From Bacteroidota bacterium (GTDB lineage: Bacteria; Bacteroidota; Bacteroidia; J057): a stretch of 64,000 bases of DNA. Below the pieces are notes generated by a model. It made no database searches. It was not told the DNA's origin and worked only from the letters and a program-made list of their open reading frames with translations. Position numbers and translations under genes: made by a program. Positions 32 through 29,480 of this stretch are shown one piece after another (the first letter of the stretch is position 1; every line of letters starts with the position of its first letter). The DNA lies in NCBI GenBank assembly GCA_039029315.1, contig JBCCGK010000023.1:56670-120669 (forward strand), given 5' to 3'.

Positions 32-1882
32 TTATGGCTGTCCCGTTTTCAACATCTTTCCCTCAAAATGCTCATTCCCAAGATCGGAAACAAAATCTGC
101 CTTATAAAAATACAGCCCATTCGCAATCTTTTGGCCGTTGAGGTCTTCCCCCCAATTCAATTCAAATGTGCCTCCATTTTCCAGAATTTCTGTATGTGCC
201 AAACATTCCTGACCAAGACTGGAATAAATCTTGATGTGGAGTTGACCTGATCGAGGAATTTGGAATCGCAACAAAGTTGTATTCACAAATGGATTGGGGA
301 AATTGTAGCTGAGTCGATTGCCAAAGTTATCAGGAATATCAATCTTCTCAGGCGCAGGGCTTTCCTTCACATCTATGATTTGATTGGCAGAGATGTCATG
401 CAGGGTATCACTCAGTCCGCTGGGCCAGTAGATCAGCAATTCATCAATCACACTGGCGGCGCCTATCCCAAAATGAACGGGCTTGATGCTTTGCCCAAAG
501 AATCCAGCGCCATGATAATAGCGGGCATAGGTTTGCTCTCCCACCTTGGCTAGCAGCCTGCTGCCAAAGGCATTCCTATTAGACGTGCTTCCTTCTAATC
601 GTATCTGCAGCCAGTTCTTATCCTGTGGCTGCTCATCCTTGATCATGTCATTGCGAAACAGATAAGGTGCAACAAACTGGTTCGCCACGATCATATCCTG
701 ATCACCATCGCCATCATAATCAAAAACCTCCAGCCCCTTAGCAGCAGTAAGCACACCCGCACCTGATTCTTTGGACCAATCCTGAAATCCGGTGCTTCCT
801 TCCATGACAGTATTTTTGTAGAAAAAATTGTTGACTGCCTCTTGAGGAACTCCATTGAGTTTGTCTATTGGCCCATTGACCGCATAGAGGTCTTCATCTC
901 CATCGTGATCATAGTCAAAGAAATGTGTTCCCCATCCCCAACCGGTATTCTCCACACCCATTTCTTCCGCAACATTGACATACTTGAGGTGGTCTTCATT
1001 TCTGAGCAATGGATTGGGATGATGGAGATAGATATTGGTTACATATATGTCAAAATCCTGATCATTGTCATAATCTCCGACCGCAACCCCCATTCCAGCT
1101 CCTTCATCTCCCATGCGGTATGCCAGGGTCCCATTGCGAAAGCCCGCCCCCCCCTGGCTCAGCCACAATTTATTGGCCTGGGTGTCATTGATATCATACA
1201 GATCCAGGTACCCATCCCGATTCACATCAATCGCAATACTTGTCCAGGTAATCGCAAGCAGATCCAGCCCCAGGCCCAACTTTTCCGTTACATTCTCAAA
1301 AGTTCCATCGCCATTGTTTTGATACATGATATTCGGACCATTGAGAATGCTCACGTGCAGATCCAGGAATCCGTCCCGATTGTAATCCCACCATAAACCA
1401 CTTCCACTATAACAGTCAAAACAACCATTGACTCCTGCTTCAAAAGTAACGTCAGTGAAGGTTCCATCTCCATTGTTGTGGTAGAGTTGGTCATCCCTGC
1501 TATTGGTCAAAAACAAATCGGGATATCCATCATTGTCATAATCTCCCCAGGCAGCGCCCATTTTTTCTCCTCTTGCAGCAGGTTCTCCCGCATTGAAAAA
1601 CTGCCCCTCCAGGCCCGCTTCAATGGTAACATCCTCGAAGGTCCCATCCCCATTGTTACGCATCAATCGATTCCATGTCGAGTCGATCAGATAAATGAAT
1701 GAACCATACCCAACAAAATAAATATCCAGGTCCCCATCTTGGTCATAATCGGCAACAGCCACACCATTGTTCGCACTGATATGGGTCAAATTGGCTTCAT
1801 CTTCTACCTGCACAAAATCTTGTGCTTTTGGATAAGCAAGAATTCCCACCAACAGGAAGAGTAAGTAGTAGCGTAAATTCAT
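32..1882 (-). CDS. FG-GAP/VCBS-repeat plus ASPIC/UnbV-like protein (CRTAC1-like) with C-terminal T9SS sorting domain
   Basis: 616-aa ORF with signal peptide MNLRYYLLFLLVGILAYPKAQ. Repeated calcium-binding-type motifs DYDQDGDLDIYF, DYDNDGYPDLFL, DYNRDGFLDLHV, DYDNDQDFDIYV, DYDGDGDQDMIV. C-terminal ~80 aa (NFPNPF...GLYFYKADF) resembles Por/T9SS C-terminal domains. Confidence 0.7.
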   Translation of the reverse strand: MNLRYYLLFLLVGILAYPKAQDFVQVEDEANLTHISANNGVAVADYDQDGDLDIYFVGYGSFIYLIDSTWNRLMRNNGDGTFEDVTIEAGLEGQFFNAGEPAARGEKMGAAWGDYDNDGYPDLFLTNSRDDQLYHNNGDGTFTDVTFEAGVNGCFDCYSGSGLWWDYNRDGFLDLHVSILNGPNIMYQNNGDGTFENVTEKLGLGLDLLAITWTSIAIDVNRDGYLDLYDINDTQANKLWLSQGGAGFRNGTLAYRMGDEGAGMGVAVGDYDNDQDFDIYVTNIYLHHPNPLLRNEDHLKYVNVAEEMGVENTGWGWGTHFFDYDHDGDEDLYAVNGPIDKLNGVPQEAVNNFFYKNTVMEGSTGFQDWSKESGAGVLTAAKGLEVFDYDGDGDQDMIVANQFVAPYLFRNDMIKDEQPQDKNWLQIRLEGSTSNRNAFGSRLLAKVGEQTYARYYHGAGFFGQSIKPVHFGIGAASVIDELLIYWPSGLSDTLHDISANQIIDVKESPAPEKIDIPDNFGNRLSYNFPNPFVNTTLLRFQIPRSGQLHIKIYSSLGQECLAHTEILENGGTFELNWGEDLNGQKIANGLYFYKADFVSDLGNEHFEGKMLKTGQP

Positions 1883-2016
1883 ATCAAAGGATGTTTGGTT
1901 CTGTTATTCGAATGCATGAAATCAGGCAATTGTCAGAAAGATAAGCCGCCAACTACAGCAAAACAAGCATAGTTGGCGGCGATCTACTCAGGTCAAGCCA
2001 GATAAATAGTAATGGT

Positions 2017-3759
2017 CTAGTATCCGTTGTTCTGTATGATCGCACCCTGGCTAACCACGATCTGAGAGTTAGGAATGGGTTGATACTCATCTCGTCCTAC
2101 AACGAAGTTCGCATCGTTGAGGTATTCTCGTCGGGCTTTCTCAGTAGAGAAATAGGCATTCAGGGTCTCTTCTGCAATTCCCCAACGGACCAGATCAAAG
2201 AATCGACCTGGATGAGATTCCAGCGCGAGTTCCAATCGTCTCTCCCAACGCAGGATTCGTAAGGCATCCTCTTTGGTCGCGAAGTGAGACTCATTGTACA
2301 AGCCAATCATATACTGGCCTGATGAACTACCATCCGCCTTGACAAGTTTGCCAGTACTGTTCATTGCCCGTTCACGGATGCGGTTGATGATCGGCAAGGC
2401 TTCCAGGTGTCGGCCTGTTTCGATCAATGCTTCTGCCCAATAGAGAAGTGCATCAGCATAGCGCATTTGGTCAGTGTTTCGAGCAGTAGTAAAAAATGCG
2501 ACTGTTCCGCGGAAGCAGGGAGATTCAGGGAGTTCCTGATCTTTGAAAGCAGCATTGAAACCATATATGCCAGGCACGCGAGAGTAGGTTTCATCAAAGA
2601 TTCGATCAGGGACATATTTCCAGGGCATTCCCAGTACAGCAATACTATGAGAAAATCGTGGGTCGAGGTTATTGGCCTCCACAGCTGCCACTCCATCAAT
2701 GATAGGATCCCCATCATAGGTATCAAACATTGGCAGGCCATCAACATCTGTCTTAAAGGCATTGGCCAGATTGACAGAAGGAATGTTGAACCAACAGCAT
2801 CCGTATCCAGGTCCCATGGTTGAGTTCAGCGCATTGGAATGGTTCCCTCTTCCTTCTGGTGCACCATCGTCAATAGAGCGCATGACTGCCCAAACTGATT
2901 CGATTCCACTTTCTGTTTCACACAGAAAATTGTCAGCGATGTCAGCATGTAGGTCAAATTCTCCAGAGGCATCCACTTCTGCAATCAGGTTGGCGGCCTC
3001 ATTCAATTCACTTTGAGTAATAGCGGTCACTTGATGGTTGTCATCCTGCACATAGGCTTTGTAGATCAAGGATTTGGCCAGGAAGAGCTTGGCTGCCCCT
3101 TTGGTAGGTCGCCCGATTTCACTCTGTGTAGCTGGCAAGCCTGCCACTGCAGCACGCCATTCATCTATGATCCATTGCCATCCTTCCTGATCGCTCAGCT
3201 CTCGATTGTGTTTCGTGATATAGTCTTTCTTCTCAATGGTCTCATCGAGATAGACGATATGTTTGTAGAGGACTTTCAGTTTGAAATATGTCTGGGCACG
3301 CAAGAAGTTCATCTCAGCAATTCGCTCTCCTCTTGTAGGCAAGTCTGCTTCGTTCGCTGCTTGCAAGCGTCCCATCGCTTCATTGATTCTGGAAACCAAT
3401 ACATACAAATTCAACCACATCAGGCGATTATTTGTGTTACCTGTTGCAGTCTGTAGCGTTTTGACTTCGATTCGGTGGGTATTGAACTGGTCAGGAATAC
3501 TTCCCCCTCCTTTATGCGCATCTCCTGCTCCGACACTTCCATATGTCCACATGTCCTGGAAAGGAGCGAAAAAGTTGTCATTTCCTTGAGCCGCATAAGC
3601 AGCAATGACCAGTTTTTCAATATTCTCCGGGCTATTCAGGTCTTCACTATTGACCACTCCTTTGGGTGTAAAGTCCAGAAATTCCTCTTGACAGCCTGCA
3701 CTAAAGGTCATCGAGATGATCAGGACGACAAGGAATTTGATATATATAAATTTTTTCAT
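2017..3759 (-). CDS. susD: SusD/RagB-family nutrient-binding outer-membrane lipoprotein
   Basis: 580-aa ORF with lipoprotein signal MKKFIYIKFLVVLIISMTFSAGC. C-terminal RYADALLYWAEALIETGR-type SusD helical signature. Sits immediately downstream of a SusC gene with a 30-bp gap. Confidence 0.85.
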   Translation of the reverse strand: MKKFIYIKFLVVLIISMTFSAGCQEEFLDFTPKGVVNSEDLNSPENIEKLVIAAYAAQGNDNFFAPFQDMWTYGSVGAGDAHKGGGSIPDQFNTHRIEVKTLQTATGNTNNRLMWLNLYVLVSRINEAMGRLQAANEADLPTRGERIAEMNFLRAQTYFKLKVLYKHIVYLDETIEKKDYITKHNRELSDQEGWQWIIDEWRAAVAGLPATQSEIGRPTKGAAKLFLAKSLIYKAYVQDDNHQVTAITQSELNEAANLIAEVDASGEFDLHADIADNFLCETESGIESVWAVMRSIDDGAPEGRGNHSNALNSTMGPGYGCCWFNIPSVNLANAFKTDVDGLPMFDTYDGDPIIDGVAAVEANNLDPRFSHSIAVLGMPWKYVPDRIFDETYSRVPGIYGFNAAFKDQELPESPCFRGTVAFFTTARNTDQMRYADALLYWAEALIETGRHLEALPIINRIRERAMNSTGKLVKADGSSSGQYMIGLYNESHFATKEDALRILRWERRLELALESHPGRFFDLVRWGIAEETLNAYFSTEKARREYLNDANFVVGRDEYQPIPNSQIVVSQGAIIQNNGY

Positions 3760-3788
3760 TTTGGGTGAATTTGATAAATAAAACAGAG

Positions 3789-6700
3789 CTAGAATCCGAC
3801 GTCAATCCCCAGCGTAATTCTTAAAGGTCGAGGATAGTTTCCGGGGAGGCGCTGACCAAATCGCGTTCCATTCGCTCTCTCAATCAGAGAACCGAATAGG
3901 TATGACGCTTCAGATCCGTTTGTGACAGAAAAATAATGGAGGTTTTCCCCTGTGAGATAGGCTCTTAATGAACCAAAAGGTGAGTTGGCAGCTGCCGGGA
4001 GATTCCATCCCAAGGTTACCTGTCGAATCGCGAGGTAATCACCACTTCTGACATCCCAATCGGAGAATCCAAAAGGTCGAGTGCTGGTACTTTGTGCTGG
4101 AATGTGGGTGTCTTTATTTGTAAATGTCCAGCCATTGAGAGAAGCACTTCCTGCTGTTCTACCTGGCGCAAGTCCTCCCAGTTCATTATAATTGGCATCA
4201 CCAGGGATCAATCGTCCCAATGCTCCTGTCAGTTGAATGGTCAGGTCGAAGGCTTTATAATTCATTTGGGAATTCAGACCAAAGTCTACCAATGCTCTCG
4301 CAGCGGCATCAATGTATTCCCGATCTGTAGGCGTAATCATTCCGTCACCATCCAAATCAGCATATTTGAAAGCTCCGACCCGGATTCCAGGATAGGCAGG
4401 TGCAGCGGCCAATTCTTCGGCACTTTGAATCAAGCCATCTACACGATAGACAAACATCGCATTTGGAGAATGTCCAATGATGTTTTGATCTTCTGTTCCA
4501 TTTCCAGGATAAGAAGCCCATAAGTCTTCAGGTAGGCTGGTGATCTTGTCGACATAGCCAGAGAATACCCCACTGATGGTATAGTTGAAATCTCCACTCA
4601 AGGGACTAAAGTATCCAAGTGAGACTTCCCATCCACGGGTTTCCATGTCCGCACCATTGGCCCATCGACTGTATCCATCTCCAAAGTGTCCGATAGCGGA
4701 AGGACGAATCAGGATATCGGTGGTTTGTTTTTGGTACAATTCGATAGAACCGGTGATCTTGTCAGACCACAACCCAAAATCCAGTCCAACATTGATCTCA
4801 GTGGTTGTTTCCCATTTCAGGTCATCATTGCCGGTTTGGGTCGCCAGAAAACCTGATGGAAGAATGCCTGTATTATTGTTGCCAATATCATAGGCAGTTG
4901 CAGCATCCAGGCACAAGGTCTGTGCACACCCACTTCCCCAGGGAAGATAGGTACTCTGCGGTGCATATACAGCCTGATACAAAGCAAATCGGGCTGTATT
5001 TTCAATATCCTGGTTCCCGGTTTGTCCCCATGCAGCACGAAGCTTCAAGTTGGAAAAGGTTTTGCTCCCTTGAAGAAATTCTTCTTCGCTGATCCTCCAT
5101 CCTACAGAAGCTGCCGGAAAAACCGCAAATCGATTGTTCAAGCCAAAGCGGGAAGAGCCATCCCGACGAATGGTGACAGATGTAAGATATTTGTCGGCAA
5201 ACGTATAATTGACTTTTCCGAAGTATGAAAAGAGAGAGAAACCTGTCTGAGATCCAGCAGAAGTTCGTTCTCCTGAAGCTGCTGACAACTGAAAGTAGTC
5301 GTTGTTTTCCAGAGCAAAATCTTTGCCTGAAGCAGAGAATACGCGGAATTGATTTTCAACGGCCTCTGTCCCCGCCAGGACATTCAAGGCATGTTTGCCC
5401 CCAAAATTCTTGGAGTAGGTCAAGGTATTGTTGAATACCAGATTCGTCTGATGAATCTGAGTCAGCCTCAATTCAGCCGTTGTGTTGCTTAGGAAACCTC
5501 TTGAATAGGTTCTGAAAAGGTCTCTGGTGTAAATATTGTCATAATCGATCCCCAGATTGGTTCTGAAGGTCAGCCCTTTAAGGATCTCAGCCTCAACATA
5601 GACATTCCCAAATGCCTTGACATTGTGGATTCGATCATCCTGATTGTCAAAGCCCAGACCAGCAGGATTGTCTCGATCATCAAATCCCGCACCGGGAGGG
5701 CCAGCAAATCTTCCATCTTCCGTCTTTACAGGCAGCATGGGCTTCATCACGCGCATCAGGTTTTCCACTGTTCCGCCAAAACCATCGTCAGACCACTGGC
5801 GCTCACCTTTTGTTACGCCAATGTTTTCTCCAATTTTCACACGTCCGTTGAGGAACTTATAATTAGAATTCAATCGAGTGGAAATTCGCTGATATCCACT
5901 ATGAATAACTGCGCCTGTATGATCAAACAAATTGACCGAGAGGTGAACCCCTCCTTTATCTGTTGCCTGATCAAATGTTACATTATAATCCTGAACGATC
6001 CCTTGCTGAAAGATCACATCATTCCAATCGGTTCCAGCCTCCAAAGAAGAGCCACCATATTCTGTCCCAGTCCAGGTGCTATTGGGATGTCCTGCAGGTC
6101 TCAGCTGATCTGCTTCATCCAACCACTCTGGATAGATGATTCTGTCCAATACAGGCACACCATTGCCTTGGATACCAGGCCCCAGAGAAGGATCATAGTG
6201 CCACTCATACCGATACCGACCGACATTGTCTGGATCCCCACCATCATTGACAGCAGCTTGCCACTGGTTGATGGCTTTTTCTTCACTGGTCATCAAATCC
6301 CAGGGATTGACTATTCTCTCTGTACTGAATCGGACACTGGCTGTGATAGAACTTCGCCCTTGCTTCGCTTGTTTGGTGGTGATGATCACTACCCCGTTCG
6401 AAGCTCTGGAGCCATAGATAGAAGCCGAAGAAGCATCTTTGAGAATCTGAACAGATTCAATGTCGGCAGGATTGAGCCATGACAGCCCCCAGGTTGCCTG
6501 GGTGTTGGGGGTGTTGCTCGCCCCCTGAAATGGCTGTACAGGAACCCCATCTACGATATACAAAGGTTGGTTGTTCCCCAAGGTACTGATCCCCCGTATG
6601 GTGATACTCGCCCCTTGTCCCGGTTGTCCTGCCAGACCTACCTGAACCCCCGCAACTCTCCCCTGCATGGTTTGCATGATGTTGTTGTTCGTATTCCCTT

Positions 6701-7124
6701 TCGTTTTTTCCATCTCCATGATCCCCACAGCTCCCAAAAGATCCTTCTTTTTCTCAGTCGCATAACCAGTAACAACGACTTCTTCCAGGGTGGTAACATC
6801 AACTTCCAGGGTGACATTGATGGTGGTCCCTCCACCAACCGTCATTTCCCGGGAGACATAACCGATGTAAGAAAAGATCAAGACATCTCCTTCCGTCGCT
6901 GCAATTCGATAAGATCCATCACTTCCCGAGAATGTGCCTGTGGTTGTTCCTTTTTTTGAAATGGTAGCCCCTTCCAGTCCTCCCCCATCTGAACCTGTAA
7001 CTGTTCCTGTGATATTTTGCCCAAAACCCAAATTGGGAATTAATGCTAATAAGACACCAAACAGAATCAATTTGAGAGTACGGTTCAATGGAATCTTCAA
7101 GAGCCGCAGTAATGGTTGATTCAT
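3789..7124 (-). CDS. susC: SusC/RagA-family TonB-dependent outer-membrane transporter
   Basis: 1111-aa ORF with N-terminal carboxypeptidase-regulatory-like domain (ITGTVTGSDGGGLEGATISKKG...SGSDGSYRI). TonB plug motif ITIRGISTLGNNQPLYIVDGVPV. C-terminal beta-barrel ending in aromatic residue F. Paired with a SusD gene. Confidence 0.9.
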   Translation of the reverse strand: MNQPLLRLLKIPLNRTLKLILFGVLLALIPNLGFGQNITGTVTGSDGGGLEGATISKKGTTTGTFSGSDGSYRIAATEGDVLIFSYIGYVSREMTVGGGTTINVTLEVDVTTLEEVVVTGYATEKKKDLLGAVGIMEMEKTKGNTNNNIMQTMQGRVAGVQVGLAGQPGQGASITIRGISTLGNNQPLYIVDGVPVQPFQGASNTPNTQATWGLSWLNPADIESVQILKDASSASIYGSRASNGVVIITTKQAKQGRSSITASVRFSTERIVNPWDLMTSEEKAINQWQAAVNDGGDPDNVGRYRYEWHYDPSLGPGIQGNGVPVLDRIIYPEWLDEADQLRPAGHPNSTWTGTEYGGSSLEAGTDWNDVIFQQGIVQDYNVTFDQATDKGGVHLSVNLFDHTGAVIHSGYQRISTRLNSNYKFLNGRVKIGENIGVTKGERQWSDDGFGGTVENLMRVMKPMLPVKTEDGRFAGPPGAGFDDRDNPAGLGFDNQDDRIHNVKAFGNVYVEAEILKGLTFRTNLGIDYDNIYTRDLFRTYSRGFLSNTTAELRLTQIHQTNLVFNNTLTYSKNFGGKHALNVLAGTEAVENQFRVFSASGKDFALENNDYFQLSAASGERTSAGSQTGFSLFSYFGKVNYTFADKYLTSVTIRRDGSSRFGLNNRFAVFPAASVGWRISEEEFLQGSKTFSNLKLRAAWGQTGNQDIENTARFALYQAVYAPQSTYLPWGSGCAQTLCLDAATAYDIGNNNTGILPSGFLATQTGNDDLKWETTTEINVGLDFGLWSDKITGSIELYQKQTTDILIRPSAIGHFGDGYSRWANGADMETRGWEVSLGYFSPLSGDFNYTISGVFSGYVDKITSLPEDLWASYPGNGTEDQNIIGHSPNAMFVYRVDGLIQSAEELAAAPAYPGIRVGAFKYADLDGDGMITPTDREYIDAAARALVDFGLNSQMNYKAFDLTIQLTGALGRLIPGDANYNELGGLAPGRTAGSASLNGWTFTNKDTHIPAQSTSTRPFGFSDWDVRSGDYLAIRQVTLGWNLPAAANSPFGSLRAYLTGENLHYFSVTNGSEASYLFGSLIERANGTRFGQRLPGNYPRPLRITLGIDVGF

Positions 7125-7222
7125 AGTAGTAGATTTAAGTTGATTGATGATTTGAACTGATAACAGTCAACATTCAAATTATTATTCCCGATCAGATTCT
7201 GAGGATGAAAAACTGATCAGAA

Positions 7223-7236
7223 TGGGGGGAATTTTT
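7223..7236 (-). promoter_or_regulatory. Conserved 14-nt motif tGGGGGGAATTTTT (copy A), about 100 bp upstream of the susC start
   Basis: An identical 14-mer recurs at 9197-9210, in the same orientation relative to the minus-strand genes. Confidence 0.4.
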
Positions 7237-7263
7237 CTAATCAAACAGCCTGAAGAAGAATCA

Positions 7264-7301
7264 GCAAGCGGATTCATCTTCCAGGAGATGAATCCGCTTG
7301 T
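7264..7301 (-). promoter_or_regulatory. Strong hairpin between GH32 stop and susC start (possible intra-operon attenuator/processing site)
   Basis: Perfect 15-bp inverted repeat caagcggattcatct / agatgaatccgcttg with a 6-nt loop (tccagg). Confidence 0.4.
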
Positions 7302-7324
7302 TCGCTGTACCCTTATGATTCGAT

Positions 7325-8986
7325 TTACCAGATAGACTGAAGTTCATGTACTTCCAGATGGTGAATCACGATCTCAGCCCGTCCACTTATAGACAATCCT
7401 TCTTGATTTTTAGGCTCATTTAGAGGTGCACTAAAATTGAAGCGTCCATGATCCATAAATATTTCAACAGATGTTCTGTCAATCAGGACTTCCAGGTCGA
7501 CGGTTTTGGTTTCGGCCAGATCTGACTCATAGAATACACCATTGAGTTTGTTATAGTTCATGTCATGGGTCAGGATCACATTTCCTTTGTATTTGAGTTG
7601 GAAAGAGGTCCCGTCGAGGGTCTCGACTGTCAGTTTCAGATGAAGAAGCTCTCCTTTGACATCAGCCAACTTCTCATTGGCTTCACCAGTAGTAAGCTTG
7701 CTCCACTGCATGCTGTTGGTATGAAGTTTTTTGAGTTCGCCGATGGGTTCTGAGAACATTCTGACGCCATTGCGTGTAGAGCGGAGGGTGAGTTCGGTAG
7801 GAAAGAGAAACATCTGGGTAAATGGCATCTTGCCTCCATGGTCCATACCCCTTGCCCATCCGATCTGTATGCGTCTTCCATCTTCTTCCGGGATATTGTT
7901 GTACGTCTGAGCAGCATATAGGCTCCCAGCACAGTAGGCATGTTTTCCTGAAGTTGGCTTGAAGGACTTTCCATCAAAATCACCAATCATATAGGTACCA
8001 GAAGCACCATAGATCACCCATTTGGTGTTGTATTTGTTGCCATCTATGGGCAATTCAAACAGTTCTGGGCATTCCCAAAATCCAACCAAATGACTCAGAT
8101 AGGTCCATTCTTTGAGGTTGTCGGAATTGTAAAAGGAATGGCCATCTTTCTCAAAGACCACCATGACCCATTTTTGCGTTCCCTCATGCCAAAAGATTTT
8201 GGGGTCTCGGGTATTTCTGGAGTCCCATTTTGCTTTGCTATCAACCACAGGATTCCCTTCATATTTGGTGAAGGTTCGGCCCTTGTCATTGCTATAGGCG
8301 ATACACTGGGTCTGAATGGCATCCCCTTCTCCCAAATATTTATGTGCAGTATACGCTGCAATGATTGGCGGATTGTCTCCTTCCTGAAATCCTGTTGTAT
8401 TCTTGGCATCAATGGTTGCTGTCCCTGAAAACATGGTCCCTAACTCATCTGGATGCAGGACATCTGTCAGTTCTTTCCAAAACACCAAATCCGTACTTAC
8501 GGCATGTCCCCAGGTCATATTTTCCCAATTGGCTTCATAAGGATTATGCTGGTAAAACAAATGGTATTCTCCCTCATACCAGACCAATCCATTGGGATCA
8601 TTGTTCCAGCCCCGACGAGAGCTGAAATGCACCTGTGGCCGCCCCACTTCCTTGTAGACACTGTCCTCTCCCGCAAATCGATCTGATTGATAGATCTGCT
8701 TCATGCCCTTTACCTTCTCTGGATATCGGATCGTCAGACTGCTTCCTTGAAAGGCCGACATATCCGCAAATACCCAGTAGTCAGGTTCTTCTGTGCTAAG
8801 ACGAATCACGAATGTGCGAATATTGACCCCTCCTATCTCAAATTTCATTTGTTGCCTGTCTTCAGAATGTTGGACAGGAAGATTGAGATACTTTTTCGTG
8901 ATCTTGATGGTTCGTTTGTTTTCCTGAGACCATACAGAAAGCACACATCCTAGGAGCACACACAAGAGCCAGGCTGTTTTTTTCAT
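7325..8986 (-). CDS. Glycoside hydrolase family 32 (beta-fructofuranosidase/levanase-type)
   Basis: Canonical GH32 motifs are present: WNNDPNGL (nucleophile Asp), HAVSTDLVFW, RDPKIFW (RDP) and WECPELF (EC acid/base). The six-frame ORF extends to 9061, but a signal-peptide-like start MKKTAWLLCVLLGCVLSVWSQ at 8986 is more plausible. Confidence 0.85.
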   Translation of the reverse strand: MKKTAWLLCVLLGCVLSVWSQENKRTIKITKKYLNLPVQHSEDRQQMKFEIGGVNIRTFVIRLSTEEPDYWVFADMSAFQGSSLTIRYPEKVKGMKQIYQSDRFAGEDSVYKEVGRPQVHFSSRRGWNNDPNGLVWYEGEYHLFYQHNPYEANWENMTWGHAVSTDLVFWKELTDVLHPDELGTMFSGTATIDAKNTTGFQEGDNPPIIAAYTAHKYLGEGDAIQTQCIAYSNDKGRTFTKYEGNPVVDSKAKWDSRNTRDPKIFWHEGTQKWVMVVFEKDGHSFYNSDNLKEWTYLSHLVGFWECPELFELPIDGNKYNTKWVIYGASGTYMIGDFDGKSFKPTSGKHAYCAGSLYAAQTYNNIPEEDGRRIQIGWARGMDHGGKMPFTQMFLFPTELTLRSTRNGVRMFSEPIGELKKLHTNSMQWSKLTTGEANEKLADVKGELLHLKLTVETLDGTSFQLKYKGNVILTHDMNYNKLNGVFYESDLAETKTVDLEVLIDRTSVEIFMDHGRFNFSAPLNEPKNQEGLSISGRAEIVIHHLEVHELQSIW

Positions 8987-9196
8987 AAATCCAGCAGTTG
9001 AGAAAAACAAATTGACATGCAGGAAACAGAAAACACCTATTCCCATGCTTCCACATGCCAATGCTTAATGAACAAATTAAACTACAACTTAAAGCGGAAG
9101 GTCTTTTGGCTGGATAATTCCAAAGCCAGTCCTTCGAATCTCTAGTAGCAACTTGCAAAAGTCTGCCCAGAATTACGGATGAAAAACAAATCAATT

Positions 9197-9210
9197 TGGG
9201 GGGAATTTTT
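9197..9210 (-). promoter_or_regulatory. Conserved 14-nt motif tGGGGGGAATTTTT (copy B) in divergent GH32 / HTCS intergenic region
   Basis: Identical to 7223-7236. About 210 bp upstream of the GH32 start and about 70 bp upstream of the HTCS start. Confidence 0.4.
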
Positions 9211-9277
9211 TTAGCGCGTCCTCGATTTGGCTTCCCTCTATACATTCGGTATATTGGAAAAAAGCTCCAATCCGCAC

Positions 9278-12022
9278 ATGGTCCTCAAGAACTTGCTCTT
9301 TCCCATCTTCCTTTTTGTGCTGATAAGCCTGGTATCTTGCTCTACACAAGGACCACAATACCCTTATATTATTGGGTTTTCTCAATGCTGTGATGATGCC
9401 TGGCGGGATGTCATGAATGAAGAAATGGCTCGGGAACTGACTTTCCATTCTGATATTCAATTCATCACCAAAAGCGCCCAGAGCAGCAGTTCATTACAGA
9501 TCAAGCAAATCAAAGAATTGATTGATTCAGGGATTCACTTATTGATTGTTGCCCCCAACGAATCCCAACCACTCACTCCGATCATCGAGGAGGTGTATCA
9601 GGCGGGCATACCTGTGATCTTGATTGATCGCAAGACAGAATCAGCAGAATATTCTGCCTATATCGGTGCTGACAACTATGAAATTGGTCAAACGGCAGCC
9701 AAATATATTTCCAGCAGATTCAAGGATGGGGGGAAAATTCTTGAACTTCAGATGGCCATGAAGATCTCTCCTGCAGCTGAGAGGCATCAAGGATTCGTCG
9801 ATGAAATCAAACAGTATCCACATTTCTCAATCATCAAGTCTGTCGAGATGAATTTGAACTTAAGCTCAGATGTGAGAGATTCTGTCAAATCACTCCTCAG
9901 TAGCCTAGGTCCAGTCGATATCATATTCGGGCATACGGATTTGTTGGCTGAAAACGCTTTCTCAGCTGCTTCAGAGTTAGAATTGGAAGAGGAGCTTTTT
10001 TTTGTTGGGGTGGATGGGTATCCCAGTACAGGAGGCGGGATTGAATCTGTGGAGAAAGGGGTTCTGGATGCTTCCTTGTTGTATCCGACTGGCGGAGGGG
10101 AAGCCATCCGTCTGGCCATGACGATTCTGAAGTATATGCCCTATGACCGAATCAATCGACTTCAGACAACAGTCATTGACTCCACCAATGCCAGCATCCT
10201 CCACTCTCAACTGTCCAAGGTTCATTTGCTTCAAAAAAGCATCAATCAGCAAATCCATCGAAATCAGGAATTACAGGGCATTTATCAGAATCAACGACTG
10301 TTCATTTTCTTTCTGTTGTCCAGTCTGATGCTTGCCATGATCCTGGGCGGTTTTCTGTGGTATTCCCTTCGTGCCAAACAAGTGATTAATCTGGACCTTC
10401 AGCTCAAAAACAGGGAAGTCCTTGCCCAAAAAACCCAAATAGAGGAAATTTCTGAGGAAGTCCGCAAAGCTACGCAGGTTAAGGTGGAGTTTTTTACCAA
10501 CATCTCCCATGAATTTCGCACGCCCTTGACCTTGATTTTGGGTTTTGCGGAGAATCTCTTGCCTTCCCTGAAGTTCAATGACCAAACCCAACTGAACATC
10601 AAACTCATTCGCCAAAATGCCGTACGTCTGCTCCGTCTGGTAAATCAGCTGATGGACTTTAGAAAGATTGAAAGCGAAAAAATGATCATTCGAGCGAGTG
10701 AACAGGATATTCTGGAATTTATTCAGAATATCATGAAGTCTTATTTCCCCACGGCAAGAAATAGAGACATTGATTTTCAGCTCATCAGTCGCCACAAACG
10801 CCTACCGGTTTGGTTTGATGTGAACATGCTGGACAAGGTGTTGTTCAACCTCCTCTCCAATGCGTTCAAGTTTACGCCTGATCATGGCAAAATCCACCTA
10901 TATGTACGTGCGGACAAACTGGAAAACATCGTCAAGATCAAGGTAGAAGATAGCGGTCCTGGTATGAGACCGGAAGTGCTGAATCACATTTTCGAAGCGT
11001 TCTATCAGGGGGATGGCACAACCAAAATGAGCACAGGCCTGGGACTGCCTCTCTCCAAGGCTTTGGTACAGTTACATCAAGGCGATCTGATCGCTCAGAG
11101 TATTCCGGGCAAGGGAAGTCGGTTCTCTCTGAGCTTGCCATTGGGTAGACATCACCTCAAAGATGAGGAGATTTTGCCTTTCGAACCAGTAGGGTTTTTG
11201 AATCCAGGGGAATACCTGGACCTGGAAGAAGAGGTATTGATTCCGGTTAAGGAGCAGCAGCAGAATCAGGAATACTCCATTCTCATTATTGAAGATCACT
11301 CAGACATCCAGTTTTTTCTCAAACAACAACTGGAGCATGAATACAACATTATCTCCTCATCACATGGTGTCCATGGTCTCGAAACAGCGATTGAGCTGGG
11401 ACCAGATCTGATCATCTGTGATGTTATGCTCCCTGGTCAGGATGGCTTATCGATCACAAAGACACTCAAATCCGATCTTAGAACCTCCCATATACCCATC
11501 ATTTTGTTGACCTCCCAAAGTACTGTCGAGCAACAAATAGAAGGCACCAAGGCTGGAGCTGACGCTTATATTCCCAAACCCTTCAATGCTTCTTTGCTTA
11601 AGGAGAAAATCAAAAATCTGCTTCACAATCGACAAATCCTCAGAGAAAGTTATGGCAGTGTCCTGATGGGGATACAGCCCCATCCCTCTTATTCTCTGGA
11701 CCAACAGTTTCTCCACGCCTTTGTCCTCTTTGTCAACCAGAATTTTCATAGAGAGGATTTTCAGGTGGCAGATTTGAGCAAAGAATTTGGGCTCTCACGA
11801 TCCCAACTGTACCGGAAGGTCAAGGCATTGCTTGGACAGAGCATCAGCGACTACATCCAACAAATCCGGCTTCAGAAAGCCGAAGAACTTCTCAAAGAAG
11901 AGGAATTGTCTATTTCGGACATTGCGTACAAGGTCGGTTATAGTTCTCCAGAGTATTTTTCAACTGTGTTTAAGACCAAATATGATATCAGTCCGACCAA
12001 GTATCGGAAGGACTGGAGCTAA
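9278..12022 (+). CDS. Hybrid two-component system sensor kinase/response regulator with periplasmic sugar-binding (PBP type 1) sensor domain and AraC-type HTH (BT1754-like)
   Basis: Signal/TM MVLKNLLFPIFLFVLISLVSC. Periplasmic LacI/ribose-binding-like domain (IIGFSQCCDD...LLIVAPNE...GIPVILIDR...YIGADNYEIG). TM segment (LFIFFLLSSLMLAMILGGFLWY). HisKA box (FFTNISHEFRTPL). HATPase (GLGLPLSK). REC (ILIIEDHSD...DLIICDVMLPGQDG). AraC HTH (LSRSQLYRKVK...). The ORF track starts at 9227; the start at 9278 is preferred. Confidence 0.85.
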   Translation: MVLKNLLFPIFLFVLISLVSCSTQGPQYPYIIGFSQCCDDAWRDVMNEEMARELTFHSDIQFITKSAQSSSSLQIKQIKELIDSGIHLLIVAPNESQPLTPIIEEVYQAGIPVILIDRKTESAEYSAYIGADNYEIGQTAAKYISSRFKDGGKILELQMAMKISPAAERHQGFVDEIKQYPHFSIIKSVEMNLNLSSDVRDSVKSLLSSLGPVDIIFGHTDLLAENAFSAASELELEEELFFVGVDGYPSTGGGIESVEKGVLDASLLYPTGGGEAIRLAMTILKYMPYDRINRLQTTVIDSTNASILHSQLSKVHLLQKSINQQIHRNQELQGIYQNQRLFIFFLLSSLMLAMILGGFLWYSLRAKQVINLDLQLKNREVLAQKTQIEEISEEVRKATQVKVEFFTNISHEFRTPLTLILGFAENLLPSLKFNDQTQLNIKLIRQNAVRLLRLVNQLMDFRKIESEKMIIRASEQDILEFIQNIMKSYFPTARNRDIDFQLISRHKRLPVWFDVNMLDKVLFNLLSNAFKFTPDHGKIHLYVRADKLENIVKIKVEDSGPGMRPEVLNHIFEAFYQGDGTTKMSTGLGLPLSKALVQLHQGDLIAQSIPGKGSRFSLSLPLGRHHLKDEEILPFEPVGFLNPGEYLDLEEEVLIPVKEQQQNQEYSILIIEDHSDIQFFLKQQLEHEYNIISSSHGVHGLETAIELGPDLIICDVMLPGQDGLSITKTLKSDLRTSHIPIILLTSQSTVEQQIEGTKAGADAYIPKPFNASLLKEKIKNLLHNRQILRESYGSVLMGIQPHPSYSLDQQFLHAFVLFVNQNFHREDFQVADLSKEFGLSRSQLYRKVKALLGQSISDYIQQIRLQKAEELLKEEELSISDIAYKVGYSSPEYFSTVFKTKYDISPTKYRKDWS

Positions 12023-12310
12023 AGGAGCATACATGTATGCAACAAATCTTGAGACAAATGCATCATTTTTATAGATGTCGTATAAATGAACCGAACAACA
12101 CCCCCGCACAAAAAACTCACAATCAATATTTTACACCCCAATACTCCGATTACAACAATCCTACAGGAATTAGACTATTTTTCTAAGGCTCTCCAACTAA
12201 GAAATCAGTAATTTTTGGAAATGATGGCCTCTTGCACCTAACCATTTATTCTTAGAGACTGTTTTAAAGGACATTGTTGAATATCTGACGTACATCCTTA
12301 GCTGTACTGT

Positions 12311-15345: not shown

Positions 15346-16212
15346 TTACCTTCTTCCTTGTCCTGTACTGCCAAAAATGTCCATTTGCTTACCGACAACT
15401 TCTCCGACAGCCTGATGCGCCTGCTTCATCATGATGACATAATCATCATACACTTTGCCGGCATTGTTGAGATAGCTTGTCATTGATTGTAGGGCTGCCT
15501 GAGACATGCCTGTATAGAAATTGATTTTGGCAATTCCCAGGCTGATGGCTCGCCGGAAATCTTCTGGAGAGATTCCACTTCCTCCATGCAACACCAAAGG
15601 TATCCCAGTAATATCCCTTAATTGTTTCAAGCGTTCAAAATCCAAATCTGGTTCTCCCTTGTACTTTCCATGAGAATTTCCAAATGCAATCGCGAGGAAG
15701 TCCACCTTCGTTTCCTCTACAAATATTCTGGCTTGCTCCACATTGGTATATTTGCTTGGATCTGCCTCTCCCTCCAAGTCTCCCCCTTCTGATCCACCTA
15801 CTGCTCCCAACTCTGCCTCTACACTGATCCCCAATGGATGACAGATTTCCACGACTTGTCTGGTTTGGCGAATATTTTCTTCGAATTCCAATTGAGATCC
15901 GTCAAACATAATGTTCGTAAAGCCATTGTCAATGGCTCGCTCTATGCCTTTCATGGTCAAGCCATGATCCAAATTCAGAACAATGTCGAGAGAAGTTCTG
16001 GCAGCCAGGGCTTGAATAGCAGGCACAATGTTTTCTGGGGTAACATATGGGTAGTGCGCTTCCGCAATACTCAGGATCACGGGCGAATTTTTTGCCATAG
16101 CAGTCCCTACAATGGCTTCTAGGAAATGGAGATTCACAACATTGAAGGAGCCGACCGCATAGTGCTTGTGATAGGCGCGCTCCAGGACTTGTTTCATGCT
16201 TACTAATGGCAT
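15346..16212 (-). CDS. Class II ketose-bisphosphate aldolase (fructose-/tagatose-1,6-bisphosphate aldolase family)
   Basis: 288 aa with N-terminal MPLVSMKQVLERAYHKHYAVGSFNVVNLHFLEAIV...AKNSPVILSI. Metal-binding His-rich segments (LNLDHG, VLHGGSG) are typical of class II aldolases of GatY/KbaY/FbaA size. Confidence 0.8.
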   Translation of the reverse strand: MPLVSMKQVLERAYHKHYAVGSFNVVNLHFLEAIVGTAMAKNSPVILSIAEAHYPYVTPENIVPAIQALAARTSLDIVLNLDHGLTMKGIERAIDNGFTNIMFDGSQLEFEENIRQTRQVVEICHPLGISVEAELGAVGGSEGGDLEGEADPSKYTNVEQARIFVEETKVDFLAIAFGNSHGKYKGEPDLDFERLKQLRDITGIPLVLHGGSGISPEDFRRAISLGIAKINFYTGMSQAALQSMTSYLNNAGKVYDDYVIMMKQAHQAVGEVVGKQMDIFGSTGQGRR

Positions 16213-16238
16213 CGCACAAGGGGTTAAAAATGAAATAT

Positions 16239-17372: not shown

Positions 17373-17378
17373 GTTTTT

Positions 17379-18812: not shown

Positions 18813-18895
18813 ATGATTGACGGATGACGGTGGACGATGGAGGCTTTCAGTCAGCGACATTTCCGTTGACCGTAGACCGTCCTTCGTTAACCTTG

Positions 18896-21952: not shown

Positions 21953-21966
21953 AGTTCTCTATATAA

Positions 21967-26092: not shown

Positions 26093-27679
26093 TCAGTATA
26101 CGTTGGTTCTGGCCATTTGCCAAACTCTGGCATGTGATATCTTGATTGATTTTGATCCAGTGAACAGTTTTACCTGATTGCTCTCTCTCAATTCTGGATA
26201 GACCACTTGGGTCATACACTGTCTTCCATTGGCGAATACCTCAATGATTGACTGATCTATAAAGATATTCAGCTTAAGGGATTCGCCTTTTTTGAGTTCG
26301 AATGGTGCGCGTTGCTCAGAAACGGGTTCTGTAAATCCTTCCAATTGAGGCTCGCCCATACAGTTGGAGCGAAAGGTCTGGCTTCCTTTTGCACTGATGG
26401 AGGAGTTGGAAAAATCGATCACGAGTTCTTTCGATCCAGGATCGTAGCGAATGATTGTTTCTTCACGGCCATCAGGGGAGCAAAATACTTTGACACCATA
26501 GGTATCTTTGATCGTTCCGTCCAATTCTACCTCTATCTCGAGTGCTGTCCCATCTAGATCCATCAGGTGCTCTGTATCGGGAGAAAGCACAAGATCTGTC
26601 TCCTCGGTCCCAGCCAGACGGAGCTGTTTGAATTCTTCTGGAGGCTGAATCCGCAACACACCATCCGAAGGCAGGCTCAAGGCTCTGGGCATGCTCATGA
26701 TGCCAGACCATCCAAAGTCTTCGAGGTGATCGGGCTTGCGTTCCAGTACCCATCCCCAAATGAGGTTCCGTCCCGAATCATCGACCATCTGTTCCGGGGC
26801 AAAGAAGGTCCCACCCGGCCAATTCATTCGATGATGCTGTTCGATGGTGTATTGTCCGTTTTTGAAGGTCCCGATGTAGTATTGTGTTCCCAGATTATGG
26901 CTGATAAAGAGCAGCATCTGTTTGTCACCAATGTTGAAGAAGTCGGGGCAGGATAGGTCTTCAAAATCGAGTCGTTTTCGGTCATCTTGCGGAATCAGAT
27001 CCCCCAAATATTCCCACTCCATCATGTCTTTGGATCGAAAAAAGCCTGCAATTTTCCCTCCTGAAATCTGGTAGTAGTGATCGGTTTCCTTGTCATACCA
27101 GCCCTCAGGGTCCCAGGCTCGATATTTTTCATACATAGGGTCTCCTTTCTCCGGGCTTCTCAGCACAGGATTTCCTTCAAATTTTTTCCATTCCCTCAAA
27201 TCTGCATCTGTCGAATATGCTACCAGGTTGGTGGCAGATCCTTGCCCATGATACATGATATGCGGAATCCCCTCTCTGGACAGAAACGCTCCTCCACTGA
27301 AAATGCCTTTCTCTATGTCTCCATCCTTCACATCCAGCATATCCGGATACAACTGCCAATGCAACAAATCTGTGCTGACAGCATGTCCCCAGTAGTGTTC
27401 TCGAAATCCCTTGTGATAAGCTTGGTAAATGAAGCCAAGATGATATTTGCCATTCCAGTATATTCCGCCATTGGGGTCGAAAGGATAGGCCATTCCTTCT
27501 GGCGCTACAAAATGATAGATCGGACGATGCGGGTCAGACATGATTCGCTGCCGAAGCTTGCGGGATTGCATCACCTTGTCGAGTTCATTGGTCGTGGTCT
27601 TCTGCCCCATCAGTTCGGGACCATGCAGAGCCAAACAGGCTGTAAGCGTCAACAAAGAGAGTAGTCGTAGTAGTAGCAT
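26093..27679 (-). CDS. Divergent GH32-family (clan GH-J) glycoside hydrolase, secreted
   Basis: Signal peptide MLLLRLLSLLTLTACLALHG. FDPNGG plus KYHLGF (nucleophile block), HAVSTDLLHW, RAWDPEGWY (RDP-like) and EDLSCPDFF (EC block). Confidence 0.7.
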   Translation of the reverse strand: MLLLRLLSLLTLTACLALHGPELMGQKTTTNELDKVMQSRKLRQRIMSDPHRPIYHFVAPEGMAYPFDPNGGIYWNGKYHLGFIYQAYHKGFREHYWGHAVSTDLLHWQLYPDMLDVKDGDIEKGIFSGGAFLSREGIPHIMYHGQGSATNLVAYSTDADLREWKKFEGNPVLRSPEKGDPMYEKYRAWDPEGWYDKETDHYYQISGGKIAGFFRSKDMMEWEYLGDLIPQDDRKRLDFEDLSCPDFFNIGDKQMLLFISHNLGTQYYIGTFKNGQYTIEQHHRMNWPGGTFFAPEQMVDDSGRNLIWGWVLERKPDHLEDFGWSGIMSMPRALSLPSDGVLRIQPPEEFKQLRLAGTEETDLVLSPDTEHLMDLDGTALEIEVELDGTIKDTYGVKVFCSPDGREETIIRYDPGSKELVIDFSNSSISAKGSQTFRSNCMGEPQLEGFTEPVSEQRAPFELKKGESLKLNIFIDQSIIEVFANGRQCMTQVVYPELRESNQVKLFTGSKSIKISHARVWQMARTNVY

Positions 27680-27725
27680 ATTTGTGGGAGTTATAGAAGC
27701 ATCATTTCCAGACTGCGGAAGGATG

Positions 27726-28889
27726 TCAATTTTTCAACAAAGTCAAGGGAGGAAAGCCCGTAATTCGTACAACATACATGCCCGGAATCAGGTCGGAGAG
27801 ATTGGTCAACACATGTTGGCCCCCGGCTTGGAGCACTCCTTTCCAGGCCATTTGCCCTGTATAATGGTACAAAGCCACCTGTTTGTCTCCTGAGCCTGGA
27901 ATGTTGAGATGCAGAACCGACTCAAGTGGTTGCGGAAACGCACGCAGAGAGGGTTCCGTTGGCATTGGCTGAAAGTGCGCATCTTCCAAGCTGATGGACA
28001 TCACTGATCCAAACGGGCTATCGGATGACCATATTGGCCCCGATGGGCTGCCTCCCACATTCATGAAGCCATCACTTGGGCCACCGGATGCTCCAGACTG
28101 GTCACCAATCACTGTTCCTGTTCCTTCATCAAAATGATACAATCCTACTGTGGATCCATCCGTAACAAAGGCTGATGTTGCTGGCGTAAAGTTGGCAGTG
28201 TACCGTAAAACGTCGGAGAAGCGAAGCTCATCCATGAACCCATTGAAGGAGGGGAAGGCTGCTCCAGCATCGTGCTTTTCGGCCCCCAGCACAATGAAAG
28301 GGTCGCTGTTCGTGCAAGGCCCTCCACAAAAGTTGCCTGGAACCCCATCATCGGGATAGGATACATTGCCATCTGGTCCGTCTGCCTGTGCTTCGAGCAT
28401 CCCATCGACATACAACCATATCCATCCATCACTCAATCGGCGCTGAACCGCAATATGATGCCAAACATTGTCCAGGACGTTGGTCGTGCCACAAATGGTC
28501 TGTGAATTAAAAAATGGATCCAATATCCCAAACACTGGCACACCTCCGGCAATCGAAATCCCAAAAGCACGCTCTTGATTGAATCTGTCCCGATCCAGAA
28601 TGATGTTCCCATTGATCCAATCGTAATTAAAGCCGCAAGTGATCGCTGCACTGGTATTGTCGGCTGCATTTCCTTTCATCCAAAATTCAATCGTAAGATC
28701 TGTGTCTCCAACATCCACCGGAGGACCAGGATCGGCTGGCATCGTCGGGTCATCAATCCGGATTTTCACCCGATCTTGATCAACAGCAGCAATTCCATTT
28801 CCAAAAAATCGCAATGAAAATCCCTGAGCAATTCCAGCTTGAACCAATAGTTGACAAACAACCGCCCAACAACAGATTGATCTTTTCAT
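27726..28889 (-). CDS. Secreted LamG/concanavalin-like domain protein with T9SS C-terminal sorting domain
   Basis: Start MKRSICCWAVVCQLLVQAGIAQG preferred at 28889. LTIEFWMKGNAADN...IILDRDRF is typical of laminin-G/pentraxin-like jelly rolls. The C-terminus (ESVLHLNIPG...PGMYVVRITG) is T9SS CTD-like. Confidence 0.55.
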   Translation of the reverse strand: MKRSICCWAVVCQLLVQAGIAQGFSLRFFGNGIAAVDQDRVKIRIDDPTMPADPGPPVDVGDTDLTIEFWMKGNAADNTSAAITCGFNYDWINGNIILDRDRFNQERAFGISIAGGVPVFGILDPFFNSQTICGTTNVLDNVWHHIAVQRRLSDGWIWLYVDGMLEAQADGPDGNVSYPDDGVPGNFCGGPCTNSDPFIVLGAEKHDAGAAFPSFNGFMDELRFSDVLRYTANFTPATSAFVTDGSTVGLYHFDEGTGTVIGDQSGASGGPSDGFMNVGGSPSGPIWSSDSPFGSVMSISLEDAHFQPMPTEPSLRAFPQPLESVLHLNIPGSGDKQVALYHYTGQMAWKGVLQAGGQHVLTNLSDLIPGMYVVRITGFPPLTLLKN

Positions 28890-28950
28890 ATTGTATAGGT
28901 GAAATTCTTGATTGCATGACCTGATTGAAAGGTACACATCATCCATGAAA

Positions 28951-28986
28951 TCTTGGGGGAAATACTGGTCTTTCTTGGGGGAAATT
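28951..28986 (-). promoter_or_regulatory. Perfect 13-bp direct repeats tcttgggggaaat spaced 23 bp apart, upstream of the LamG/T9SS gene
   Basis: Copies at 28951-28963 and 28974-28986, about 65-100 bp upstream of the start at 28889. G6-A-T core related to the tGGGGGGAATTTTT motif at 7223 and 9197. Confidence 0.35.
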
Positions 28987-29480
28987 GTTTTCGACTCCAG
29001 ACAAATCATTCCAAAACTACTGATTCTCGTTCATCTGATGAGGACAAAGGGCAGCACCAGCAGCCTGATCAGCCAAGCCTGACTCATCTTTTTCGCTGAC
29101 ATTCTCCTTGCAAAATATATGTAGCAATCACGCGATAACCTCTGCAGGCTCCACAAAAAAACAAGGGTCTTTGACAATGTTAATGGAGCTGGTAATAAAT
29201 TCTTGCTTGCTCGCTTATGACCTCCCTCGGGTCGCATTTTTCCTTCAGGAGAAACAACCCGCCATCCCACAATGTTGCTTCCACAACTGTTGTCAAAGAA
29301 CCAAAAATAAAAAAGGAATTCGGCGCAGAGACAGCAGACAAGCAATATTTCTCTTGTTTACAAAAACCCATTTCTCAACATTTTTATATCAGGAAACGAC
29401 TGTCCTGCTTTGCTCACCTATTTGGAAGGTTCTCAGGCATTGAATATTTTCAATAGAAACTGCTCAACCAACTATTCGTC

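Follow-up and report, generated by a model that had tools for sequence, protein, structure and literature searches.

The closest described relatives of the DNA element treated here are the operators of hybrid two-component systems (HTCSs) of Bacteroides. Motifs were predicted for 16 Bacteroides HTCSs by Ravcheev et al. 2013 (PMC3878776). Each is a direct repeat whose spacer is not conserved, and the spacing averages 21 bp; paired HTCS paralogues, which are close relatives, were predicted to have a motif in common. With activated BT4124, DNase footprinting showed tandem half-sites about 21–22 bp apart (PMC13292587). For BT1754 (HTCS_Fru) of Bacteroides thetaiotaomicron, the strongest peak in chromatin immunoprecipitation sequencing (ChIP-seq) lay at BT1754's own 3′ region (PMC3404733), and a supplementary alignment upstream of BT1763 shows TGCAACAtatcttacagcattTGAAACA, a TGCAACA...TGAAACA dyad. 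Regulation of polysaccharide utilization loci (PULs) outside gut Bacteroides is largely unmapped, and very few of the operators predicted for only these 16 systems have been footprinted. We analyzed a stretch of 64,000 nucleotides (64 kb, the window) from a Bacteroidota metagenome-assembled genome (contig JBCCGK010000023.1, 120,669 bp), which by its gene map is a fructan utilization locus and in which two HTCS genes, HTCS#1 and HTCS#2, lie side by side. Three of its promoters, those of susC, of the glycoside hydrolase gene GH32a and of a LamG–GH32b operon, carry a repeated G-rich element, and we read the three sites as tandem half-site HTCS operators of about 34 bp, most likely for HTCS#2, giving this reading a probability of roughly 0.65. 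All coordinates are those of the window, and scans covered both of its strands (128 kb).

Results

A tandem element at three promoters

The first-pass annotation of this DNA had pointed to a 14-nt motif shared by two promoters, and this was confirmed. The motif TGGGGGGAATTTTT occurs exactly at 7223–7236 and 9197–9210 on the forward strand and at these two places only, 99–112 bp upstream of the susC start codon (ATG at 7124) and 211 bp from the GH32a ATG at 8986, with 68 bp from the end of the second copy to the HTCS#1 ATG at 9278. The accompanying estimate of chance recurrence (about 1e-3) is valid only for a 14-mer specified in advance. The window contains 30 direct repeats of at least 14 nt compared with 14.9 ± 4.6 in first-order Markov shuffles, so one exact 14-mer pair is unremarkable. 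The 14-mer was found to be the promoter-distal half only of a gapless 34-nt block, GGATGAAAAAC-N9-TGGGGGGAATTTTT, which is identical at 29 of 34 positions between 7203–7236 and 9177–9210, and an analytic estimate puts the expected number of such pairs at about 6e-4 per window. The five mismatches are all confined to the 9-nt spacer, and the flanks of 11 nt and 14 nt are perfect; random placement of all five in the spacer has a probability of C(9,5)/C(34,5) = 4.5e-4.

The half-sites of this block are GGATGAA and GGGGGAA. They stand 22 bp, or about two helical turns, apart, which is the period of the repeat at 28951/28973 as well. At this third site, TCTTGGGGGAAAT occurs exactly at 28951–28963 and 28973–28985 (+), as had been reported, but the spacing is 22 bp from start to start with a 9-nt gap, and not 23 bp. 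The two copies lie 62–96 bp before the LamG start codon, upstream of the gene as claimed; the start is the ATG at 28889 rather than 29009, so the repeats are not inside the gene. The pattern GGNNGAA-N15-GGNNGAA at period 22 had exactly three zero-mismatch matches in the window, and these were the three promoter sites. The motif is not spread through coding DNA in the window.

In all three sites the G-rich strand is the forward strand and the nearest genes are on the reverse strand, with the same orientation to the targets. On the target strand the susC site reads AAAAATTCCCCCCA-ttctgatca-GTTTTTCATCC (in the direction of transcription, AAAAATTCCCCCCAttctgatcaGTTTTTCATCC) and the LamG site ACAATTTCCCCC-aagaaagacc-AGTATTTCCCCC (ACAATTTCCCCCaagaaagaccAGTATTTCCCCC), and the GH32a site reads AAAAATTCCCCCCAaattgatttGTTTTTCATCC in the direction of transcription. 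The target-strand half-sites are thus T-rich and then C-rich (AAATTCCCCCC / GTTTTTCATCC / ATTTCCCCC), and TTTTTCnACC is the form in the wider family. Each window site has a period of 22 bp, and the foreign loci described below have 21–23 bp. An alternative register of 24–25 bp (GATCAG repeats in the susC promoter) was dropped because the GH32a site does not have it.

Bacteroidota promoters have the consensus TAnnTTTG for the −7 box and TTG at −33. Of the 11 sites, window and foreign together, that could be placed, 8 have a TAnnTTTG-like box that ends 28–29 nt beyond the proximal half, as does L174. The candidate boxes of the window are given in Table 1. The GH32a promoter has TTTG at 21 nt and GTTG at 28 nt, and the susC promoter of one foreign locus (L170) has TTTG at these two positions. 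With the −7 box 28 nt past the proximal half, this half sits where the −33 element would lie, which would be a class-II-type activator geometry. The 14-mer is itself unlike the −33 or −7 consensus, and a sigma-70-type scan found nothing at the motif. The first-pass annotation had also considered a dedicated promoter class, an idea that is not supported: what follows downstream of the sites is a −7 box of the ordinary Bacteroidota type. There is no intrinsic terminator at the motif either: the only terminator-like hairpin in 6900–9500 is that at 7265–7300, and GGGGGGAATTTTT has no complementary C-run upstream.

Rfam, run on the whole window at gathering thresholds, gave no match at the motif. 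Its only match was a tRNA at 35781–35856 (−), which with 33.6 bits against a gathering score of 29 is barely above threshold; a 14-mer match with two mismatches (35771–35784) overlaps the 3′ end of this tRNA match. A looser 14-mer match at 47822 is within a LytS-type histidine kinase open reading frame (ORF) and was rejected as a chance match.

Two sensor lineages and the distribution of the dyad

HTCS#1 and HTCS#2 are 33% identical to each other. Both periplasmic domains match the BT1754 domain 2X7X (E = 1.6e-70 for HTCS#1 and 7.3e-81 for HTCS#2), and the two proteins belong to separate orthologue families with best matches of 57% (HTCS#1) and 55% (HTCS#2) identity. For HTCS#2 the search listed 3101 proteins at E ≤ 1e-50. 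The nearest relatives are Saprospiraceae, and the collections contained no genome closely related to this one, the best protein identity being 57%. The AraC-type helices differ between the families: those of the HTCS#1 family read SRSQLYRKVK / GYSSPDYFSTVFK (LSRSQLYRKVKALLG ... GYSSPDYFSTVFK), and those of the HTCS#2 family SRSSLYRKIK / G(F/Y)xDxKYFS(R/K)CF (SRSSLYRKIKEITG ... G(F/Y)xDxKYFS(R/K)CF); close HTCS#1 orthologues share its helix-turn-helix (HTH) almost exactly. The dyad was found to change with the HTH lineage, from TGCAACA with HTCS#1 to TTTTTCnACC with HTCS#2, and there was no cross-occurrence among the sampled loci.

The HTCS#2-type loci (P0122/P0124, P0123, P0128, P0132, P0137, P0139 and P0129, which are L086/L087/L173, L088, L169, L170, L171, L172 and L174) are all fructan loci in which the sensor adjoins susC–susD/GH32 genes. 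Except in L172, the sensor gene diverges from susC or from whichever gene comes first in the locus, and within 10 kb no HTCS#1 gene is present in any of them. Dyads lie upstream of susC, GH32(DUF4980), MFS or PfkB genes in L086/L173, L088, L169, L170, L171 (by eye only) and L174, for example CTTTTTTCACCCtatagtgactGATTTTTCAACC (L086), AATTTTTCTACCtactctgactAATTTTTCCACC (L169) and ATTATTTCTTACacaattgatgAGTTTTTCCCCC (L174). These foreign dyads have the T-run/C-run half-site, the period and the orientation of the window sites, and their flanks and spacers differ. The dyad is kept at orthologous promoters. Of the two outcomes that the first-pass annotation had named as refuting, frequent occurrence in coding DNA and lack of conservation, neither was seen in the DNA scanned.

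A matrix of the 12-nt half-site was then built from foreign sites only and scanned as a dyad at a period of 21–23. In the window the LamG site ranked first (20.3), the susC site second (18.9) and the GH32a site fourth (14.6). Leave-one-locus-out scans of the HTCS#2-type loci gave top matches in promoter spacers, with scores of 25.2, 27.0, 29.2, 26.7 and 29.6, and also found sites that had not been hand-picked, such as the one upstream of the L088 GH32(DUF4980) gene. For L174 the score was 22.4 when the matrix came from the remaining loci. Control Bacteroidota DNA of 2.33 Mb gave no match of at least 25, 1 of at least 22 and 10 of at least 20. The earlier suggestion that the AraC-type output domains of the hybrid sensors bind at these repeats is thus supported by the anatomy together with the comparative data, but the likely cognate is HTCS#2 and not HTCS#1, the sensor divergent from GH32a. 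HTCS#2 is named as the most likely binder from the co-occurrence of its lineage with the dyad.

The third-ranked window match (22258–22290, +) lies antisense within the sulfatase–GH172 ORF 21967–24918. A near-identical match occurs in the GH172 gene of L169, so it was read as a coding coincidence and rejected. The sequence there is dyad-like, AAATTTTTCTCCatctacgtagAATTTTTCGTC, in the GH172/DUF2961 coding region, it recurs at L169 13375–13408, and its likeness to the operator probably comes from a peptide motif conserved in the protein. Strong dyads directed toward the HTCS gene and abutting or overlapping its start codon were seen at L170 9968–10000 (+, 29.6), L174 5149–5182 (+, 19.2) and L171 9985–10018 (+, 19.8). 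They are too close for activation and may therefore serve autorepression; no counterpart was seen in front of HTCS#2 in the window. A clean GACATTTCCACC-N10-GCATTTCCACCC dyad with a score of 19.3 was also present in L003 (Phaeodactylibacter) at 7472–7505 (+), between convergent genes for an AAA_14 ATPase and a TonB-dependent receptor with no link to fructan, and it was not counted as support. A metagenome scan with the HTCS#2 family alignment used patterns that were too generic, and its 80 loci, mostly of unrelated HTCSs matched in the C-terminal half only, served as control DNA only.

A TGCAACA dyad between the two sensor genes

The spacer between the two sensor genes contains a dyad of another kind, TGCAACA-N14-TGCATCA (12038–12065). 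With one mismatch allowed at most, it is the only TGCAACA dyad in the window, and none was found near 7223, 9197 or 28951, so the G-rich sites are not operators of the TGCAACA type (BT1754/HTCS_Fru, TGCAACA-N14-TGmAACA). A TGCAACA-N14/15-TGCAACA dyad follows right after the HTCS stop codon in all six close HTCS#1 relatives (L001, L002, L081, L083, L084 and L085), and none was present in six HTCS#2-type loci. Where the contig was long enough, the dyad of the HTCS#1 relatives was followed by an MFS–PfkB–GH32–susC–susD or a susC–susD operon. HTCS#1 belongs to the canonical BT1754 lineage, as a putative fructan sensor with TGCAACA-N14-TGCAACA as its predicted operator, and it probably binds 12038–12065.

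The spacer 12023–12310 can be aligned with the HTCS-to-MFS spacer of the relatives, the TAnnTTTG box included. This homology places HTCS#2 in the slot of the first regulated gene of the relatives: what heads the spacer before a whole MFS–PfkB–GH32–susC operon there leads into HTCS#2 here. Between the TGCAACA dyad and the MFS −7 box, L081, L083, L084 and L085 share another conserved block, TACAACnAnnTTAAAGGAATTTGGGATnATnCTTAAG, about 40–75 nt before the box; the corresponding part of the window, 12148–12187, is degenerate (GATTACAACAATCCTACAGGAATTAGACTATTTTTCTAAGG). This block may serve as a second operator or be bound by another regulator.

In HTCS#1-like loci that are more distant, the HTCS gene is directly followed by AT-rich repeats with a 21-bp period, for example GGTATCAATTTTGAA twice and ACAATTTTTAAAAA twice, at L006 12770–12805, L020 7378–7413, L039 8579–8614 and L026 12757–12792. 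They were found by an unbiased direct-repeat search in intergenic DNA, which led to the TGCAACA dyad and not to the G-rich one. It seems that the operator sequence drifts across Bacteroidota with its position and period fixed.

Weighing the explanations

Several points tell against HTCS#2 operators as the identity of the three sites. The window scores of 20.3, 18.9 and 14.6 are modest, as the control DNA gives about 0.27, 0.49 and 3.1 matches per 64 kb at these levels, so the weight has to come from position, orientation, mutual identity and the shared −7 spacing. The foreign half-sites were hand-picked by eye before scoring, a circularity that the leave-one-out scans and the controls lessen and do not remove, and there are only about seven independent HTCS#2-type loci. 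One of them, L172 (45% identity), has no convincing dyad, and the dyad picked by eye upstream of PfkB in L171 was unranked in the leave-one-out scan. The C-run half-sites of the window (CCCCC and CATCC) deviate from the CnACC of the family, the GH32a site is 190 bp from its ATG with an ambiguous −7 box, and one site is 68 bp from the HTCS#1 start, which leaves HTCS#1 a possible role.

The last point leads to the alternative that survives best, namely that the sites are operators of the adjacent HTCS#1 or are bound by both paralogues. The 9177–9210 copy is in the GH32a/HTCS#1 divergent region, both sensors have BT1754-like periplasmic domains, and the paired Bacteroides paralogues mentioned above, in one locus, are predicted to share a motif. 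But the HTCS#1 orthologues with a near-identical HTH have TGCAACA dyads in their loci, where the T/C-rich dyad scores only 12–20 and the checked top matches are coding, apart from the convergent spacer of L003. Matches to a loose GGNNGAA-N14–16-GGNNGAA in 80 loci of HTCS#1 relatives were scattered, mostly coding and not at equivalent promoters, which had been the first sign that these relatives do not have the G-rich motif. The HTCS#2-type loci, on the other hand, have the dyad with no HTCS#1 in the neighborhood. We therefore regard control by HTCS#1 as unlikely.

It is slightly less likely again that another factor, such as a global carbohydrate regulator, or an alternative-sigma promoter element, tied to neither hybrid sensor, accounts for the motif. 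The binder is assigned from sequence only, an A/T tract next to a G/C run could serve as a UP-like or bending element, and some strong dyads are oddly placed, at the HTCS start codon (L170 and L174) or in an unrelated convergent spacer (L003). However, the motif occurs in the window only at promoters of the fructan locus, its 22-bp tandem geometry is that of HTCS operators, and it tracks the HTCS#2 lineage, with next to no high-scoring matches in the 2.33 Mb of other Bacteroidota loci; the −7 box downstream is an ordinary one, and no ECF sigma or anti-sigma gene was found among the 30 window ORFs run through Pfam. Chance similarity or a remnant of a duplicated promoter fragment, with no function, is very improbable: exact 14-mer repeats are common here (30, with 15 expected) and the window scores are within reach of the control maxima, but the 29/34 block has every mismatch in its spacer, period and orientation are repeated at a third site, an independently built matrix finds the same three sites, and orthologous promoters keep the dyad despite differing flanks and spacers.

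Gene map of the locus

The features are collected in Table 1. The hairpin after GH32a is probably its terminator, and susC would then be a separate transcription unit. Target operon 3 may continue on the same strand down to PfkB and the fructose-bisphosphate (FBP) aldolase at 15346. In the block 15346–24918, PfkB and a class II FBP aldolase stand beside a sulfatase fused to GH172/DUF2961 and beside PSCyt/PSD1 and DUF1501 proteins of Planctomycete type, a combination unusual in a fructan locus; L169 likewise has GH172, FBP aldolase, PfkB and sulfatase near its fructan locus. A 292-aa ORF at 25030–25908 (−), between GH32b and the sulfatase–GH172 gene, has its only match in the 5-hmdU DNA kinase helical domain (PF18723) and is out of place in a carbohydrate locus.

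Table 1 Features of the fructan locus with positions in the 64-kb window
Feature	Position	Strand	Remarks
FG-GAP/ASPIC protein	32–1882	−	Target operon 1
susD	2017–3759	−	Target operon 1
susC	3789–7124	−	Target operon 1 (32..7124); ATG at 7124
Candidate −7 box, susC	7175..7182	−	aTAATTTG; ends 28 nt past proximal half; predicted by direct reading
Predicted susC operator	7203..7236	−	Distal half 7223–7236 (14-mer), proximal half 7203–7213; 78 bp from susC ATG
Probable hairpin terminator, 15-bp stem	7265–7300	−	Directly 3′ of GH32a, before susC operator
GH32a	7325–8986	−	Target gene 2; N-terminal DUF4980; ATG at 8986, not 9061 of the ORF finder
Candidate −7 box, GH32a	9156..9163	−	GACTTTTG; TTTG ends 21 nt past half-site, weaker GTTG at 28 nt; ambiguous
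Predicted GH32a operator	9177..9210	−	Halves as in susC site, other spacer; 190 bp from ATG 8986, 68 bp from HTCS#1 ATG
HTCS#1	9278–12022	+	Architecture by Pfam; ATG at 9278; divergent from GH32a
Putative HTCS_Fru-type dyad TGCAACAaatcttgagacaaaTGCATCA, period 21	12038–12065	+	16 bp after HTCS#1 stop, 246 bp upstream of HTCS#2 ATG
Conserved −7-type box GTAATTTTTGG	12208..12218	+	Aligns with TAnnTTTG box before MFS gene in relatives
HTCS#2	12311–15019	+	Periplasmic sugar-binding domain, histidine kinase, receiver, AraC-type HTH (Pfam)
Gene block with FBP aldolase, PfkB, sulfatase–GH172 fusion	15346–24918	−	
GH32b	26093–27679	−	Target operon 3
LamG-domain protein	27726–28889	−	Target operon 3 (26093..28889, presumed extent); ATG at 28889
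Candidate −7 box, LamG	28927..28934	−	TACCTTTC; ends 28 nt past proximal half; presumed
Predicted LamG–GH32b operator	28951..28988	−	Two TCTTGGGGGAAAT copies 22 bp apart; 65 bp from ATG 28889
T9SS-tail protein	29481–31232	+	
GH32c	31481–32992	−	

Discussion

If the three sites are operators of HTCS#2, the following course can be proposed. The BT1754-like periplasmic domain of the dimeric, membrane-anchored HTCS#2 would bind a sugar, which is probably either fructose or a fructo-oligosaccharide, and HTCS#2, once activated, would phosphorylate its own receiver domain. Its two AraC-type DNA-binding domains would then each occupy a half-site, both on the same face of the helix. The end of the proximal half would be about 20 nt before the −7 box, in the normal place of the −33 element, so the regulator would probably recruit RNA polymerase as a class-II-type activator. 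The expected outcome is that susC–susD–ASPIC, GH32a and LamG–GH32b are switched on, possibly through to the fructokinase.

The spacer homology also raises the speculative idea that HTCS#1 may control HTCS#2. In such a two-tier cascade, HTCS#1 would bind 12038–12065 and drive HTCS#2, and HTCS#2 would in turn drive the three fructan operons. HTCS#2 would then represent a BT1754-like lineage not described before, with an operator of its own (TTTTTCnACC twice, period 22). We hold this cascade to be possible but tentative, with the odds leaning against it. If true, it would be a sensor-activates-sensor or feed-forward circuit in which both two-component systems are single membrane-bound polypeptides and sense similar sugars in the periplasm. 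The arrangement of two lineages with a possible cascade is the most interesting loose end of this analysis.

For a second BT1754-like sensor lineage in environmental Bacteroidota, the analysis provides a candidate operator defined by its consensus, its spacing and its placement with respect to the −7 box, and suggests that two such lineages with two operators can share one fructan locus. Provided that the assignment is right, the limits of fructan regulons in genomes of Saprospiraceae and Chitinophagales could be traced with the dyad, and the idea that one hybrid sensor controls another would become open to test.

In comparison with known systems, the element belongs to a known kind of operator and involves no new mechanism. 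Like the Bacteroides HTCS operators, it consists of direct-repeat half-sites about 21–22 bp apart in PUL promoters next to an HTCS gene, and, as there, paralogues with differing HTH sequences have differing half-sites. Unlike them, the host is a Saprospiraceae-like metagenome-assembled genome and the window sites are known from sequence alone. The half-site TTTTTCnACC, which here takes the three forms given above, was not found in the parts of PMC3878776 and PMC13292587 that were searched.

The window resembles the BT1754 system of B. thetaiotaomicron in the sensor architecture, with a periplasmic domain matching 2X7X, histidine kinase, receiver and AraC HTH, and in the targets susC/D, GH32 and fructokinase. 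The position of the window dyad at the HTCS#1 3′ end fits the ChIP-seq peak of BT1754 at its own 3′ region. The G-rich sites differ from the BT1754 operator in having no TGCAACA match, and they are tied to HTCS#2, which is only distantly related to HTCS#1 and has other recognition helices.

Class II sites of AraC/XylS regulators include the I1-I2 direct repeats of AraC and the MarA/SoxS/Rob boxes next to the −35 element. The comparison with MarA has also been drawn in PMC13292587. Like these direct-repeat or asymmetric sites, the element has an orientation that matters and a proximal part that abuts the position of the upstream hexamer. In contrast to them, the promoter is of the Bacteroidota type (−33 / −7 TAnnTTTG), and the binding domains would be tethered to a membrane sensor kinase dimer instead of belonging to a soluble regulator. 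Finally, the side-by-side placement of two hybrid sensors in one locus is also found in BT4111/BT4124 and BT4178/BT4182. Unlike the paired Bacteroides paralogues, the sensors of the window are distant from each other, and the locus has two dyads, one of which stands in front of the gene of the other regulator.

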